From Turneriella sp. (GTDB taxonomy: Bacteria > Spirochaetota > Leptospiria > Turneriellales > Turneriellaceae), in contig CBDIID010000003.1 of the NCBI GenBank assembly GCA_965279515.1, positions 4,544,001 through 4,608,000 of the forward strand: a stretch of DNA of 64,000 nucleotides, in the 5' to 3' direction. How positions within the stretch are numbered: the first letter of the stretch is position 1; each line of letters starts with the position of its first letter. Made by a program: the position numbers and the translations under genes. Shown piece after piece: positions 24,163-29,204 of the stretch. The notes under the pieces were generated by a model, which was given only the letters and a program-made list of their open reading frames with translations, was not told the DNA's origin and did not search any database.

Positions 24163-25617
24163 ATGGATTCAAATTCAAAAACGGACGGTACCCGCGCGCT
24201 TTTGGTCGTAGCGGCTTTTGCCGTCATAGCGGCCTTTCTCCTCGGCCGCACCGAGCGGAACTTTGACGAAGGCGTATATATCCAGCAGGCGAAACTCATC
24301 AGCACCGGTAAATTTCCTTTCGTGGATTTTTTCCACCATCAGTTCCCGCTTTACATCTATATCCTCGGTGGCTGGATTTTTCTTGGGTTCGAAAGCTTCG
24401 AGGCATGCCGCCTGCTTTCGCTGCTCTTCGTTTGCGCGGCGGCCTGGATGCTGGCGGAGATCCCGCGGCTGAATGGCCGTCCGGGGGCGGGGCCTTGGAT
24501 CGCCGCGCTTTTTCTTTTTTCACCGCTTACCCGGTTTTCCCTGATGGCTATGCCGACAGGACTCATGCTGTTTCTGATCACCGCGGGCTTCTGGAGCTTT
24601 TTTCGCGGCGGACGGTCGCTCTGGATGTCGGCCTTTTTTTTCAGCGCCGCACTTTTTGCGAAGCCGGTCGTATTGCCCGCGCTTTTGGTCCCCCCGGTTT
24701 TGCTCATGGCACAGCGCCGCTGGCGGGACTTGTTACTTTTTTCTAGCGGCGGTTTTCTTTTTTGCTTGGTTCTTGGAGGGGCAGTGCTTGCGGCAAGCAG
24801 TGGCAGCTTCATACAATTGTTTGCCGCCCAGTCGTCGCGTTTTTCGGGCAAACATGTGTTTCAGGTGCTACGCACAATGCCGCTCTTCTCCGAGTATCTT
24901 AGCGCGTCTAGTATTACATCCATGCTTGAGTATAACATTATAGAGCATACTCGGAATTTTTTTTCGCCTTTTCCGTTCAACCCGGGATTGCTTTATACTG
25001 TATTGGGTATCGCCGGAGCGGTTAAGCTTGCCATAACAGAACCGCGAAGGCTGCTATTTCCCGGAATCTGGTTCCTCCTTACTTTAGTTTTTCTCGTCTT
25101 CTTGATGAACCCCTCGTTTGATCACTATCAGGTCCAGTATGTTGCGCCGCTGGTGCTACTGGCCGTCGAAGTTCTGCGACCCGATGAAGAGGGTCGATGG
25201 AAAATCATCTTATTCTTAGTGATTGCAGCTACAGTGGTCTCCGGGTCTTTCTGGAAGGTGATGTCGCCGGTGACCGTTGCTCATCTGCGTGAGCGTTTTA
25301 AACCCGGCGAAGTCGTTGTGGCGCTGAACCCCCTGATTCATGCAGTGGCCCGCACCAATCCGGTTTGTGACGTGATAGATCCAATTAACACGTACGGAGA
25401 TACAGCACTCCCGGGGATCAAGCGTACGCAGGATTGGGAAAAATTTCTGATATCCGACGCGCAGATTAAAGAATGCCTCAGGAATCATCCCGATTCCAAG
25501 GTTTATCTACACCCGGTTTTCCGCGCCTTTGTCCATAAAGAACTTGCGGAATTCGCCGTTACTTTGCCTGAATGGAGGTTAGTTTCAGAACCAGCAAATA
25601 TCAAAAAGTTCCCGTAA
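24163..25617 (+). CDS. GT-C glycosyltransferase (ArnT/PMT_2-like)
   Basis: NFDEGVY...G..PFVDFFHHQFPL loop, FAKP, FDHY; multi-TM. Confidence 0.8.
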   Translation: MDSNSKTDGTRALLVVAAFAVIAAFLLGRTERNFDEGVYIQQAKLISTGKFPFVDFFHHQFPLYIYILGGWIFLGFESFEACRLLSLLFVCAAAWMLAEIPRLNGRPGAGPWIAALFLFSPLTRFSLMAMPTGLMLFLITAGFWSFFRGGRSLWMSAFFFSAALFAKPVVLPALLVPPVLLMAQRRWRDLLLFSSGGFLFCLVLGGAVLAASSGSFIQLFAAQSSRFSGKHVFQVLRTMPLFSEYLSASSITSMLEYNIIEHTRNFFSPFPFNPGLLYTVLGIAGAVKLAITEPRRLLFPGIWFLLTLVFLVFLMNPSFDHYQVQYVAPLVLLAVEVLRPDEEGRWKIILFLVIAATVVSGSFWKVMSPVTVAHLRERFKPGEVVVALNPLIHAVARTNPVCDVIDPINTYGDTALPGIKRTQDWEKFLISDAQIKECLRNHPDSKVYLHPVFRAFVHKELAEFAVTLPEWRLVSEPANIKKFP

Positions 25618-25653
25618 TCCTGCTGGCATATTCCCCGGGAGAGGCAAGGGTTC

Positions 25654-26370
25654 TTAATAACTCAGTTTGCGGTTTGTGCGCATTGCATACTCCTCGAGTT
25701 CGTCCGGAGTTCCCAAATGCTCAAATGTTTCAGTAGGGAATGCAACTACAGAGCCCGTGCGTTTAATCGTGAAATTGTACACCGGAGAGATACTGAACAC
25801 TTTCGCCGCAAGGGCCGCTTTAGCATCGGTAACGAAATCTTTCCCGCTTCGCCACCAATAGGGTCCGGTAGTGGACCATGGACTAAACGGATCTTTTTCT
25901 CTCGTTTCCAAAACTTCGGTATCTCTTAATCTACAATAAGAATATTGCGGGTTCACAGCCCTCCGGATGGTTACGCCGCCCGAGGCGCGGCGGGAACGGA
26001 AAAAATCCAGCGCCCGCACCAGCTCGTCCGGGTCAATCAGGGCGTCGCAATCCGCGATCAGGATTTCATTTTCTTCGCTTATGCTTTGACTGCCAAAAAG
26101 CAGGGAAATTGTTTCTAGTGGACCGCGCGTATACGTCGCGAGGGGCAAGAATGAGATCTCACGGTTTTTTTGAATTTTCGCAAATTCTTTCTCGAATTCC
26201 GGCCGAATGATTACGAGATAACTGGCCCCCGGAGGGTATGAGTGAATAGCCCATTCGAAGAGCGTTTTTCCGTCCAGCCGTATGAACGGCTTATATGTTT
26301 GAATCCCCGCGTGCCTGAATCTTTCACCCGTTCCGCCGATCGGAAATATGACTGTCAGGGGATTATTCAT
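25654..26370 (-). CDS. Sugar-phosphate nucleotidyltransferase (NTP_transferase-like)
   Basis: PIGGTGERF...YKPFI, IADCD, EKDPFS, TGPYWW, LGTPDEL. Confidence 0.85.
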   Translation of the reverse strand: MNNPLTVIFPIGGTGERFRHAGIQTYKPFIRLDGKTLFEWAIHSYPPGASYLVIIRPEFEKEFAKIQKNREISFLPLATYTRGPLETISLLFGSQSISEENEILIADCDALIDPDELVRALDFFRSRRASGGVTIRRAVNPQYSYCRLRDTEVLETREKDPFSPWSTTGPYWWRSGKDFVTDAKAALAAKVFSISPVYNFTIKRTGSVVAFPTETFEHLGTPDELEEYAMRTNRKLSY

Positions 26371-26692
26371 CGACTATTACCTTATCCGACGCTCCGACTG
26401 ATGGAACTTTTACCACGATAACTTCACAATCGGTAAGAAAAACCGGTTTCGCGGCTTCTTTAGGTTCAAAAGTAAAAATCTGCTTCGCATGCAGCGTGAT
26501 GCCATTGACCATCATCGAACCGCTAAGTAAGAGATTTATTTCCATTGCGGTTTTTTGGTAATGATTGGGCCAGTCTTCCCCTTGCCGGTGGAACTTATAG
26601 CCTATTTCGAATGCTTCAGATCTAAAGACGCTAGGCTCAAAATTTCCAATAAAATAACCCAAGTGCATATCATCGAGTGAATAGATTTTCAT
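26363..26692 (-). CDS. Small cupin-fold protein
   Basis: GYFIGNFEPS...HYQK...EINLLLSG...VVKVPS...DK; overlaps both neighbours. Confidence 0.65.
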   Translation of the reverse strand: MKIYSLDDMHLGYFIGNFEPSVFRSEAFEIGYKFHRQGEDWPNHYQKTAMEINLLLSGSMMVNGITLHAKQIFTFEPKEAAKPVFLTDCEVIVVKVPSVGASDKVIVDE

Positions 26693-27741: not shown

Positions 27742-27843
27742 CAGGAGCTTTTTTGAAACTAATCAGATATCAACTTGTCAATAAGTTTCATCGGAGATTG
27801 TTCTTGACTCTCGACGGAATACAAATCAAGTTGCGTCAAAAAA

Positions 27844-28605
27844 ATGTCAAAAGTTCGCCGACGCGTCAATACTTCTATTGTTATTCCGTGTTATAATGAA
27901 GAGGAGAATATTGAAAAAATGCTTGCTGGGTTTAGTGCAGCTTTGCGGGACGATTTTTTCGGCATAGAAATTATTTTTGTTAACAACGGATCCACAGACC
28001 GTACAGGTGAACTGTTGCAAAAAAAAATAGCTGACCATAAATTCGCGAAGGCTATTCACCTGGCGCACAATTTTGGTTACGGCCACGGCATATTAGCAGG
28101 TCTTAACAATGCGGATGGAAGTCTTGTGGGATACATGCACGGTGACATGCAGGTTCTTCCGGCATCAGTCATCGAAATCGCACGTTCACTATCATCGATC
28201 AAAATCAACGCACCATTGTTCTTTAAGGCGCGAAGATATGGTAGGAGTTTTTTTGAAGTTGTTTTTACTCTTTGTATGACTTTGTTTTGCTCGTTCTTAT
28301 TTAAATTCTGGTTAGCCGATATTAACGCTCAACCCACCTTTTTCAGAAAAAATCTCCTGGAAGATTTGACTGAGATTCCCGGGGATTTCTCCTTTGACCT
28401 TTTCTTATTCCTGATTGCAAAAAAAAGAGGCATTCAGTTGATCCGGAAGCCTGTTCGGGTACATAAAAGAATCGGAGGGATTTCCAGTTGGAATCATGGC
28501 ATCATTTCAAAGTTTGTATTATCATGGTCCTTTGTTAAGGCGGCCCTGAGTATCAGGAAAACTTTTCGGATTACAAGTAGTAAGCATCAGGTTCAAAAGA
28601 TATGA
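27844..28605 (+). CDS. GT2 glycosyltransferase (polyprenol-phosphate glycosyltransferase-like)
   Basis: IVIPCYNEE, VNNGSTD, GYGHGILAG, HGDMQ, DINAQP, FSFDL, GISSWN. Confidence 0.9.
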   Translation: MSKVRRRVNTSIVIPCYNEEENIEKMLAGFSAALRDDFFGIEIIFVNNGSTDRTGELLQKKIADHKFAKAIHLAHNFGYGHGILAGLNNADGSLVGYMHGDMQVLPASVIEIARSLSSIKINAPLFFKARRYGRSFFEVVFTLCMTLFCSFLFKFWLADINAQPTFFRKNLLEDLTEIPGDFSFDLFLFLIAKKRGIQLIRKPVRVHKRIGGISSWNHGIISKFVLSWSFVKAALSIRKTFRITSSKHQVQKI

Positions 28606-29204
28606 ACGGCAAAACGCACATTATCGCCCATAGAGTTAATACGGCCCTTGAGCTTTCGCGGATTCCGCCCGAGTTTGGAGTTGAAATTGATCTCCGCGAT
28701 CGGGAACATGGAATCATCCTGCAACATGATCCCTATCTTGGAGGGGAATTACTCGAGGACTTTCTCACTCATTACCGGCATGGTACGCTGATCTTGAATG
28801 TCAAGAGCGAACGGGTTGAGTTTAAGGCCATTGAAATTTTGCAAAGACTTAAGATCGATGAGTATTTTTTCCTGGATTCGAGCTTTACAATGATCAACCA
28901 CTTTACGCGGCTGAATAACAAGAGATTTGCGCTCCGTTTTTCGGAATTTGAGAGCATTGAGACATGCCTGGCTATGGCTGGCAGGCTGGAATGGGTTTGG
29001 GTGGACAGCATTGAAAAACTACCGCTCAGCCCGGAGGTATTTGCGCTTCTTAAGAGCAATGGCTTTAGAGTATGCTTGGCTTCTCCTGAGCTTTTAGGCA
29101 GGCCGGGGGAAATTTTCCAATACCACGAGTTTCTCCGCAAGAACGGGATTTTACCGGATGCAGTCTGCACGAAACTGGGGAATGCAGCGTTATGGCAAAG
29201 TTGA
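28602..29204 (+). CDS. GDPD/PI-PLC-like TIM-barrel phosphodiesterase
   Basis: IIAHRVN, GVEIDLR, QHDP, LNVK, RFSEFE, WVWVD, SPEL, AVCTK. Confidence 0.7.
   Translation: MNGKTHIIAHRVNTALELSRIPPEFGVEIDLRDREHGIILQHDPYLGGELLEDFLTHYRHGTLILNVKSERVEFKAIEILQRLKIDEYFFLDSSFTMINHFTRLNNKRFALRFSEFESIETCLAMAGRLEWVWVDSIEKLPLSPEVFALLKSNGFRVCLASPELLGRPGEIFQYHEFLRKNGILPDAVCTKLGNAALWQS

Follow-up and report, generated by a model that had tools for sequence, protein, structure and literature searches.

What does a RuBisCO-like protein (RLP) do when it is encoded among genes for surface glycans? The question is raised by a 64,000-nucleotide stretch of a Turneriella sp. genome (GenBank assembly GCA_965279515.1, contig CBDIID010000003.1, positions 4,544,001 to 4,608,000; hereafter the window), in which the genes of an RLP, a small cupin and a nucleotidyltransferase (NTase) overlap one after another. 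To our knowledge, all characterised RLPs act in salvage or catabolism. Our analysis points, with a probability of roughly 0.6, to another role, in which the RLP would be the sugar-phosphate-rearranging enzyme of a mobile cassette that builds a nucleotide-activated rare sugar phosphate for glycans. The core of this cassette consists of the RLP and a GT-A-fold NTase, usually accompanied by a GDPD-fold enzyme and often by a small metal cupin.

The locus comprises six genes (Table 1), whose identities and folds, as named in the first-pass annotation of this DNA, were all confirmed, as was their arrangement. Analysis of the open reading frame (ORF) coordinates showed that the RLP and cupin genes overlap by 4 bp and the cupin and NTase genes by 8 bp, within the 4–8 bp described earlier. 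The RLP operon diverges from a pair formed by a family 2 glycosyltransferase (GT2) and a GDPD-fold protein of 200 amino acids (aa), the two operons being separated by 102 bp and the GT2 and 200-aa ORFs overlapping by 4 bp, and it converges on a GT-C-type glycosyltransferase across a gap of 36 bp. A consensus scan of positions 23900–29400 gave four promoter-like sites against a shuffled mean of 6.5, none of them inside the divergent intergenic region, and seven terminator-like sites against 7.8 expected. Pfam names three of the six genes (RLP, NTase and GT2); the cupin, the 200-aa and 484-aa proteins, and the mini-GDPD proteins of related loci described below, have no Pfam match even at an E-value of 5.

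Table 1. Features of the RLP locus and of the adjoining island (positions within the window)
Feature	Coordinates	Strand	Basis or remark
GT-C-type membrane glycosyltransferase, 484 aa, PMT_2-related	24163-25617	+	Convergent on NTase
GT-A-fold nucleotidyltransferase (NTase), 238 aa, MobA/IspD-like	25654-26370	-	PF12804
Small single-domain cupin, 109 aa	26363-26692	-	AlphaFold2 (AF2) fold and PDB neighbours
RuBisCO-like protein (RLP), 350 aa, 'Form IV-like' clade	26689-27741	-	PF00016, tree
Divergent intergenic region, 102 bp, between RLP operon and GT2 operon	27742-27843	.	ORF coordinates
GtrB/DPM1-like GT2, 253 aa, putative polyprenyl-phosphate sugar transferase	27844-28605	+	PF00535, phrog_841
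GDPD-fold protein (PI-PLC/GDPD superfamily), 200 aa	28602-29204	+	AF2 fold, invariant residues
TMEM260-like GT-C	12275-13939		Pfam
GT2, second in island	16005-16829		Pfam
PMT_2 GT-C	17030-18634		Pfam
JmjC/Cupin_8 protein	18734-19555		Pfam
UbiA	19571-20425		Pfam
Two radical SAM genes (SPASM-like)	20511-22509		Pfam
UbiA	22510-23307		Pfam
Cupin_8	23304-23768		Pfam

To place the RLP within its superfamily, profile scores and a phylogenetic tree were compared. The protein belongs to the RuBisCO large-subunit superfamily (PF00016, 131.9 bits against a cut-off of 30.1, E 3.6e-38), and its best relative in the PDB is a Form III enzyme (2cwx, E 3.5e-38). It falls far under the cut-off of every NCBIfam RuBisCO or RLP equivalog, including rubisco_III (170 bits, cut-off 497), the MtnW models TIGR03332 (127.6, cut-off 513.6) and NF007095 (162.2, cut-off 409), and OiaX NF042437 (116, cut-off 700). 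In a tree of 88 rows, with RuBisCO-family genes labelled by NCBIfam as references (four Form I, two Form II, two Form III, 16 OiaX-like, one MtnW-like, here L184, and one odd sequence), the window RLP joins 31 database homologues, 13 genome loci and 17 IMG/VR sequences in a clade of 62 rows on a long stem (SH-aLRT 100). This clade stands apart from the Form I/II/III group (support 97), from the OiaX-like clade (SH-aLRT 99) and from L184, and a sequence from a Beckwithbacteria metagenome-assembled genome (MAG; L031/P0107) is nested among viral sequences within it. It is probably the 'Form IV-like' group that Jaffe et al. 2019 (PMC6389311) described from phages and Beckwithbacteria; the authors' own sequences are not among the rows of the tree. 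Tree and sub-threshold scores agree in placing the RLP outside the MtnW-like and OiaX/apionate-like clades; grouping with such clades is what the first-pass annotation had said would speak against an anabolic role.

Comparison of the active-site residues, numbered as in spinach by motif on a Form I reference (L137), revealed a uniform pattern across the clade. All 62 IV-like sequences retain K175, K177, K201, D203, E204, H327, S379, G381 and G403/404; these conserved residues include the carbamylated K201 and the Mg/carbamate site, so the enolisation machinery and the first phosphate site are intact. K177 is kept throughout the clade and is S or N in the OiaX-like references. All 62 also carry E60G, T65N, N123G, D202E, H294Q, K334Y and G380C, while R295K and H298D occur in 60 and 57 of them, respectively, and both are present in the window protein. 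The set H294, R295, H298, K334, E60, T65 and N123 of Form I–III carboxylases thus reads Q, K, D, Y, G, N and G in the window RLP, which by its residues is not one of the bona fide RuBisCOs of Forms I–III and is not expected to carboxylate. At sites 295, 298 and 327, the window RLP has K, D and H, which form a polar distal pocket, compared with A, M and L in the MtnW-like L184. This polar pocket argues against membership in the R. rubrum-type 5-methylthioribulose-1-phosphate (MTRu-1-P) 1,3-isomerases (IV-DeepYkr), a type that has no labelled member among the comparison sequences.

The genome also encodes the enzymes of methionine salvage away from the RLP. MtnA (404 bits), MtnB (185), MtnD (120) and MtnC (235) all score over their curated cut-offs; mtnA lies on the contig of the window (C3) at 2.09 Mb, about 2.5 Mb from the RLP gene, and mtnB, mtnD and mtnC form a cluster at C1:16458-18226, on a 38-kb contig apart from the main chromosome contig. 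MtnK was not found in this genome. With MtnA, MtnB, MtnC and MtnD encoded elsewhere, the RLP is not needed for methionine salvage, which bears out the earlier placing of the protein outside that pathway.

To find out which genes accompany IV-like RLPs, we analysed 48 cellular loci from a scan of one genome per species and the best 80 of 309 IMG/VR contigs encoding an RLP relative. Cellular carriers include Nonomuraea, Azospirillum, Legionella/Tatlockia, Francisellaceae, many SAR11 single-cell genomes, Elusimicrobia, Planctomycetales, Verrucomicrobiia, Bacteroidota, Patescibacteria and DPANN archaea, and several of the viral contigs span 100–270 kb, some with giant-virus MAG labels. Searches of the whole loci with family hidden Markov models (HMMs) detected the NTase in 43/48 cellular and 76/80 viral loci, a GDPD-like gene in 29/48 and 69/80, and the cupin in 11/48 and 63/80; the NTase was also recovered near the RLP in 39/48 loci by tblastn and, within four genes, in 41/46 by phmmer. 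The ORF caller lost the RLP gene in two loci (L035 and L046) and miscalled parts of a third (L002). Most of these genes are close neighbours, with the NTase no more than two genes from the RLP in 38 of 46 cellular and 64 of 80 viral loci, the GDPD-like gene in 21 and 54, and the cupin in 11 and 61. In 45 of the 80 viral and nine of the 46 cellular loci, the RLP has all three no more than four genes away. The RLP-linked GDPD-like genes usually encode a mini-GDPD of 142–178 aa with the motif HRGN...E.D...GHD, and full-length PF03009 proteins occur in DPANN. In addition, 16 viral NTase::cupin fusions and one archaeal NTase::GDPD fusion were found. The association of RLP, NTase, GDPD and cupin is far beyond chance. 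No match to the RLP was obtained among 50,697 GenBank phage records, all viral copies coming from the IMG/VR scan; viruses are the main reservoir of the IV-like clade.

Several loci of this survey deserve separate mention. In the SAR11/Pelagibacter loci L014, L016, L019, L021–L023, L028, L029, L037, L039 and L043–L045, from single-cell and isolate genomes, the RLP is found with one or two NTases, a mini-GDPD, DUF7796, GT17 and GT61; the SAR11 RLP branch may be what the older literature called the 'IV-GOS' clade, or Tabita's GOS clade. The viral contigs L053, L054 and L064 (128–202 kb, two with a giant-virus MAG label) hold an NTase::cupin fusion, a mini-GDPD and the RLP together, near a 3-dehydroquinate-synthase-like sugar-phosphate cyclase and a TylF-type methyltransferase. 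In L047, a MAG labelled Saprospirales, a T4 gp32-like single-strand DNA-binding protein is encoded at 12461-13411, three genes from the RLP cassette; this contig may therefore be phage, and the cellular counts may include some viral contigs. An apparent 706-aa RLP-cupin-NTase fusion in L003 was rejected as an ORF-caller artefact of high-GC DNA, its frame differing from that of the RLP match.

The neighbourhoods of the cassette are glycan-biosynthesis clusters in both sets. Near the cellular RLP genes are GT2, GT4, GT9, GT17, GT25, GT61, WavE, LicD, PMT_2 GT-C, Polysacc_synt flippase, Bac_transf, DegT, RmlC, a GHMP-kinase::NTase fusion and methyltransferases. Viral neighbours include TylF, FkbM and Methyltransf_24 methyltransferases, often adjoining the RLP, together with GDP-mannose dehydratase, WavE, multi-domain GT2/GT25, GT10 fucosyltransferase, DegT and carbamoyltransferase. 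The expectation of the first-pass annotation that close RLP homologues would co-occur with NTase and glycosyltransferase genes was thus borne out across the 48 cellular and 80 viral loci.

Analysis of the other cassette proteins clarified what each may contribute. The NTase matches PF12804 marginally (27.8 bits, cut-off 27) and the family HMM built in this analysis strongly (E 1.1e-58); its best PDB match is the NDP-sugar pyrophosphorylase 4evw (E 5e-8), and it also matches phrog_3980 and, weakly, an IspD-like NCBIfam model (E 0.0087). The AF2 model of the cupin has a mean confidence score (pLDDT) of 96.3, and its PDB neighbours are nearly all cupin-fold proteins, among them archaeal phosphomannose isomerases of 104–112 aa such as 7zvm (104 aa). 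A phage homologue of the window cupin matches Cupin_2 (E 8e-5), and the protein itself matches phrog_24762, a family without assigned function. The canonical cupin motif is G-x5-H-x-H-x3,4-E-x6-G, and the family alignment shows it as H44-x-H46-x4-E51. The GT2 matches PF00535 (E 1.1e-19) and phrog_841 ('GtrB-like O-antigen conversion', E 4.3e-21); its matches to the NCBIfam models ArnC, PgfS and PpgS are weak and far under cut-off (ArnC, 46.5 against 529).

The 200-aa protein encoded next to the GT2 was identified by its fold. Its AF2 model (pLDDT 91.4) has GDPDs as all of its top ten PDB matches (TM-score 0.62–0.73, E about 1e-6), and H10, R11, E28, D30, H42 and D43 are invariant among 30 homologues; HR...E.D...HD is the catalytic and metal-binding motif of GDPDs. 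The protein gives no match to PF03009, so that its link to GDPDs lies in the fold and in profile-profile comparison, which aligns it with the RLP-linked GDPDs (hhalign probability 97.3, E 2.7e-11); its family HMM also matches those proteins directly (for example, the fusion in L015, E 4.6e-10). This family of about 200 aa, which has no Pfam model, is well conserved (about 52% identity) in Obscuribacterales, Flavobacterium, Virgibacillus, Paenibacillus, Nitrospirae and others, and was found in four of 151 sampled genomes of the phylum, that of the window included.

The 484-aa protein has 270 homologues by an exhaustive HMMER search, where a word-index search gave two proteins. Of 36 aligned homologues, 28 match PMT_2 (PF13231), which the window protein itself does not, and D35-E36-G37, following the first hydrophobic stretch, and D55 are invariant in the family. 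The PMT_2 matches of its homologues and the acidic motif identify it as a predicted GT-C glycosyltransferase. In two other loci, L024 of Planctomycetales (E 4.4e-17) and L002 of Elusimicrobia (E 1.2e-8), a member of this family adjoins the RLP cassette.

Natural replacements within related gene clusters bear on the order of the steps. In the three Legionella/Tatlockia loci (L006, L026 and L030), a LicD gene (PF04991, E 3e-43) lies one to three genes from the RLP, and no GDPD-like gene is found within four genes of it, which suggests that the GDPD-like enzyme handles the NTase product at the end of the pathway. The cyanophage Bellamy lacks an RLP and carries the same cupin (38% identity), DUF7796 and GT61 as the SAR11 loci; directly upstream of its cupin, in the position that the RLP occupies in the window operon, stands a fusion of an NTase with the pentose-phosphate isomerase RpiB. 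The Bellamy cluster looks like a form of the same sugar pathway that does without the RLP, and the replacement by RpiB suggests that the pathway begins with an isomerised sugar phosphate made by the RLP. Finally, the NTase::cupin and NTase::GDPD fusions give the NTase a position after the cupin and before the GDPD-like enzyme. In the record of this Synechococcus phage (NC_047838, 161820-168320), the cluster consists of a PfkB-like kinase, NTase::RpiB, cupin, DUF7796 and a double NTP_transf_3 protein, and also GT61, a class II aldolase/epimerase and a HAD protein, most of them annotated as hypothetical or 'phosphatase'.

From the folds, clade, residues, gene association and glycan context described above, we infer a four-step pathway, including its substrate, reactions, nucleotide, step order and the role of the GDPD-like enzyme. 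In the first step, the RLP would use its carbamyl-Lys/Mg2+ site to enolise a common ketose phosphate and isomerise or epimerise it to a rare one. A second isomerisation would fall to the cupin, which has small phosphomannose isomerases, along with other cupin enzymes, as structural neighbours. The NTase would then couple the phosphate to a nucleoside monophosphate, probably CMP, as in the routes to CDP-ribitol, CDP-arabinitol and CDP-glucitol. In the last step, the GDPD-fold enzyme would process the resulting phosphodiester, most likely by moving the phospho-sugar to a glycan or lipid acceptor in a LicD-like role. The order RLP, cupin, NTase, GDPD-like enzyme is suggested by the fusions and by the RpiB and LicD replacements. 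In the window, the GtrB-like GT2 and the GT-C would deliver the product, or a glycan bearing it, through polyprenyl phosphate to a periplasmic acceptor, an arrangement shared with a few other loci only.

Several observations weigh against this proposal. The tree references include no labelled MtnW, IV-Photo or R. rubrum-type sequence, and the tree comes from a quick IQ-TREE search. The cassette lacks the mutase, kinase and reductase of a complete textbook route. The cupin is absent from 37 of the 48 cellular loci, and in the window cupin the second His of the motif is replaced by Gln (Q46). The 200-aa protein has 3798 homologues, being far more widespread than the RLP, and the mini-GDPD HMM does not pick it up, so that it may work with the GT2 and not with the RLP cassette. 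We know of no verified precedent for a GDPD-fold enzyme acting as a phosphotransferase, and the GDPD-like enzyme could equally act first, releasing the substrate, or serve as an editing hydrolase. By tblastn, a GT2 lies near the RLP in 8/48 cellular loci, and a GT-C of the window's family in two other loci only, L024 and L002. Hence, of the conserved set of RLP, cupin, NTase, GDPD and GT2 that the first-pass annotation had envisaged, the first four recur and the GT2 does not; likewise, lipid loading by GT2 and GT-C, for which the window has the genes, is no general rule and is best seen as a local elaboration outside the core. A GtrB-like GT2 normally takes a glycosyl donor with an anomeric phosphate and is a poor fit to a CDP-alcohol-phosphate. 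With the GT2/GT-C wiring rare and a GtrB-type enzyme ill-suited to such a donor, the proposal is at its weakest in the last steps. A bolder version, which we regard as a tentative possibility with the odds against it, holds that IV-like RLPs are the committed-step isomerases of a largely virus-borne cassette for a CDP-activated rare pentulose, hexulose or branched-sugar phosphate, with the truncated mini-GDPD as a new class of phospho-sugar transferase for host or virion glycans.

The rival that fares best is the route of the first-pass annotation taken literally, according to which an NDP-glycose carrying an anomeric phosphate is the product of the cassette, the GT2 loads it onto polyprenyl phosphate, the GT-C transfers it in the periplasm and the GDPD-fold protein trims the lipid intermediate, as ArnD and the DPPR phosphatase do in their own pathways. 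The overlap of the GtrB-like GT2 with the GDPD-fold gene and the convergent GT-C are consistent with such a route, and so are L024, a Planctomycetales MAG with the row GT2, PMT_2, NTase, RLP, NTase, GDPD, PMT_2, and L002, which has a GT2 of 39% identity and a GT-C of the window's family. The low frequency of both transferases near the RLP (8/48 loci for GT2, two other loci for the GT-C) argues against it, as do the lack in the cassette of a phosphomutase to form the 1-phosphate, the Legionella LicD, which points to alcohol-phosphate transfer, and the viral loci, where the glycosyltransferases are soluble and no GT-C appears among the 30 neighbour families scanned. We consider this rival improbable, although clearly the strongest of those weighed.

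Less probable still is that the nucleotide-activated product is a small molecule not destined for glycans, such as a compatible solute, a lipid head group or a phage DNA modification, and that the glycan genes merely share mobile islands with the cassette. In viruses, groups of glycosyltransferase genes may act in DNA modification, four of the viral loci have a DnaB-like helicase close to the cassette, and GDPD enzymes normally act on lipid-derived diesters; for the viral copies, a product of this sort keeps some probability. Against it stand the hallmarks of lipopolysaccharide and capsule clusters in the cellular loci (WavE, Polysacc_synt flippase, Bac_transf, GT9, LicD and GT-C, with a weak Wzz-like match, E 5.5e-4, under cut-off), and a cassette context of the same kind in organisms and viruses. 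Finally, the RLP could be a salvage or catabolic enolase or isomerase acting on 5-methylthio- or 5-deoxy-ribulose-1-phosphate from S-adenosylmethionine (SAM) by-products, perhaps serving the radical SAM enzymes encoded 4–7 kb away, a reading that the RLP and cupin pairing (reminiscent of MtnW/MtnD and the 5'-methylthioadenosine (MTA)-isoprenoid shunt), the presence of MtnA, through which MTRu-1-P can form, and the weakly IspD-like NTase would suit, but one that is made highly implausible by the separate clade and low mtnW-model scores of the RLP, its polar distal pocket, the complete MtnB/C/D branch of the genome, the glycan rather than salvage genes that neighbour it across 126 loci, and the finding of radical SAM genes near it in two loci only, and weakly.

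In the genome, the cassette genes lie at the end of a low-GC island (0.44–0.47 at 14–20 kb and 0.46–0.49 at 26–30 kb, against about 0.52–0.55 in most flanks) that contains in all three GT-C, two GT2, two UbiA and two radical SAM genes. The segment 12275-23768 is the adjacent part of the same island and may encode another lipid-linked route for a sugar, conceivably of the polyprenyl-phospho-pentose type; its UbiA-family proteins weakly resemble decaprenyl-phosphate phosphoribosyltransferase (37.6 bits). In the 48 cellular loci, tblastn found none of the families of this segment near the RLP, save one match for each radical SAM gene. The island is followed by housekeeping genes for 2-oxoglutarate dehydrogenase E1, a pseudouridine synthase, ThyX and LptF/G, of which the ThyX-family ORF (33611-35170) encodes 519 aa with two Thy1-profile stretches, about double the usual length. 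A sample of 150 other genomes of the phylum yielded no IV-like RLP, the best match there reaching 215.5 bits compared with 335–544 for members of the clade. From this scattered distribution and the low-GC island, the cassette is proposed to be horizontally mobile.

If the proposal is true, the cassette would provide the first anabolic, glycan-directed role in the RuBisCO superfamily. It would also explain the widespread 'phage RuBisCO' genes (309 IMG/VR contigs), which are prone to annotation as carbon fixation, and would imply a new surface-glycan constituent in SAR11, Legionella relatives, DPANN, organisms of the candidate phyla radiation (CPR) and many phages, with a bearing on phage-host recognition and serotype diversity. 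Since the cassette consists of three or four small soluble enzymes with natural fusions and replacements (LicD and RpiB), the proposal is directly testable in vitro.

The clade itself is already in print. Jaffe et al. 2019 described about 80 'Form IV-like' RLPs of phages and Beckwithbacteria and left their function open; as in the window RLP, key residues of those proteins diverge from known Form IV proteins. The words glycosyl, cupin and nucleotidyl do not occur in the main text of PMC6389311, and its supplementary figure S1b, a Beckwithbacteria gene map, may show the neighbours. Our analysis extends the clade to SAR11, Legionella, Francisellaceae, Nonomuraea, Azospirillum, Elusimicrobia, Planctomycetales, Bacteroidota and DPANN, and what is new beyond Jaffe et al. 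is that it is tied to a conserved cassette. Among the papers searched, we found none that connects RLPs with nucleotidyltransferases, with GDPD or with glycosyltransferases in one pathway, with the reservation that the Jaffe supplements may show a gene map, and those since 2019 on RLPs and phages do not appear to deal with function. PMC7325909 concerns a different RLP and cites Erb et al. 2012.

Comparison with characterised systems revealed both shared and distinct features. MtnW/MtnX/MtnD salvage likewise combines a RuBisCO-superfamily fold with a Mg/carbamate site and a cupin; unlike its MtnW, the window RLP stays under the NCBIfam cut-offs and belongs to a separate clade, and the window genome uses MtnC. 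In the R. rubrum MTA-isoprenoid shunt of Erb and colleagues, the RLP reportedly shifts the carbonyl along a pentulose phosphate, and the product, 1-deoxy-D-xylulose 5-phosphate (DXP), is said to feed the pathway of the IspD-type cytidylyltransferase. The shunt resembles the window in having an RLP followed by a small cupin and in the carbonyl-shifting type of reaction proposed here. In contrast, the window RLP is of another clade, has a polar pocket and lacks a methionine-salvage context, and its cassette has an NTase and a GDPD-fold enzyme of its own in a glycan-cluster setting.

The Gtr (GtrA/B/C) and ArnC/ArnT systems of lipid-linked periplasmic glycosylation have putative counterparts in the window, the GtrB-like GT2 and the PMT_2-type GT-C. 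The window differs from them in having no identified GtrA-like flippase, in the translational coupling of the GT2 to a GDPD-fold protein and in drawing, as proposed, its donor from the RLP cassette. Known CDP routes comprise TarI/TarJ for CDP-ribitol, AbpA/AbpB for CDP-arabinitol via CDP-xylulose and the Campylobacter route to CDP-6-glucitol via CDP-6-fructose, together with LicD-family transferases. These CDP-alditol and CDP-ketose routes, which lead to phosphodiester-linked residues of glycans, share with the RLP cassette a surface-glycan cluster and an IspD/MobA-like NTase, whose substrate in them is a ketose or alditol phosphate, and LicD itself occurs in three Legionella/Tatlockia RLP loci. 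They use a central metabolite directly and employ a reductase, whereas the RLP cassette, without a conserved reductase, sets the RLP, with or without the cupin, before the NTase and usually has a GDPD-fold enzyme in the place of the expected transferase.

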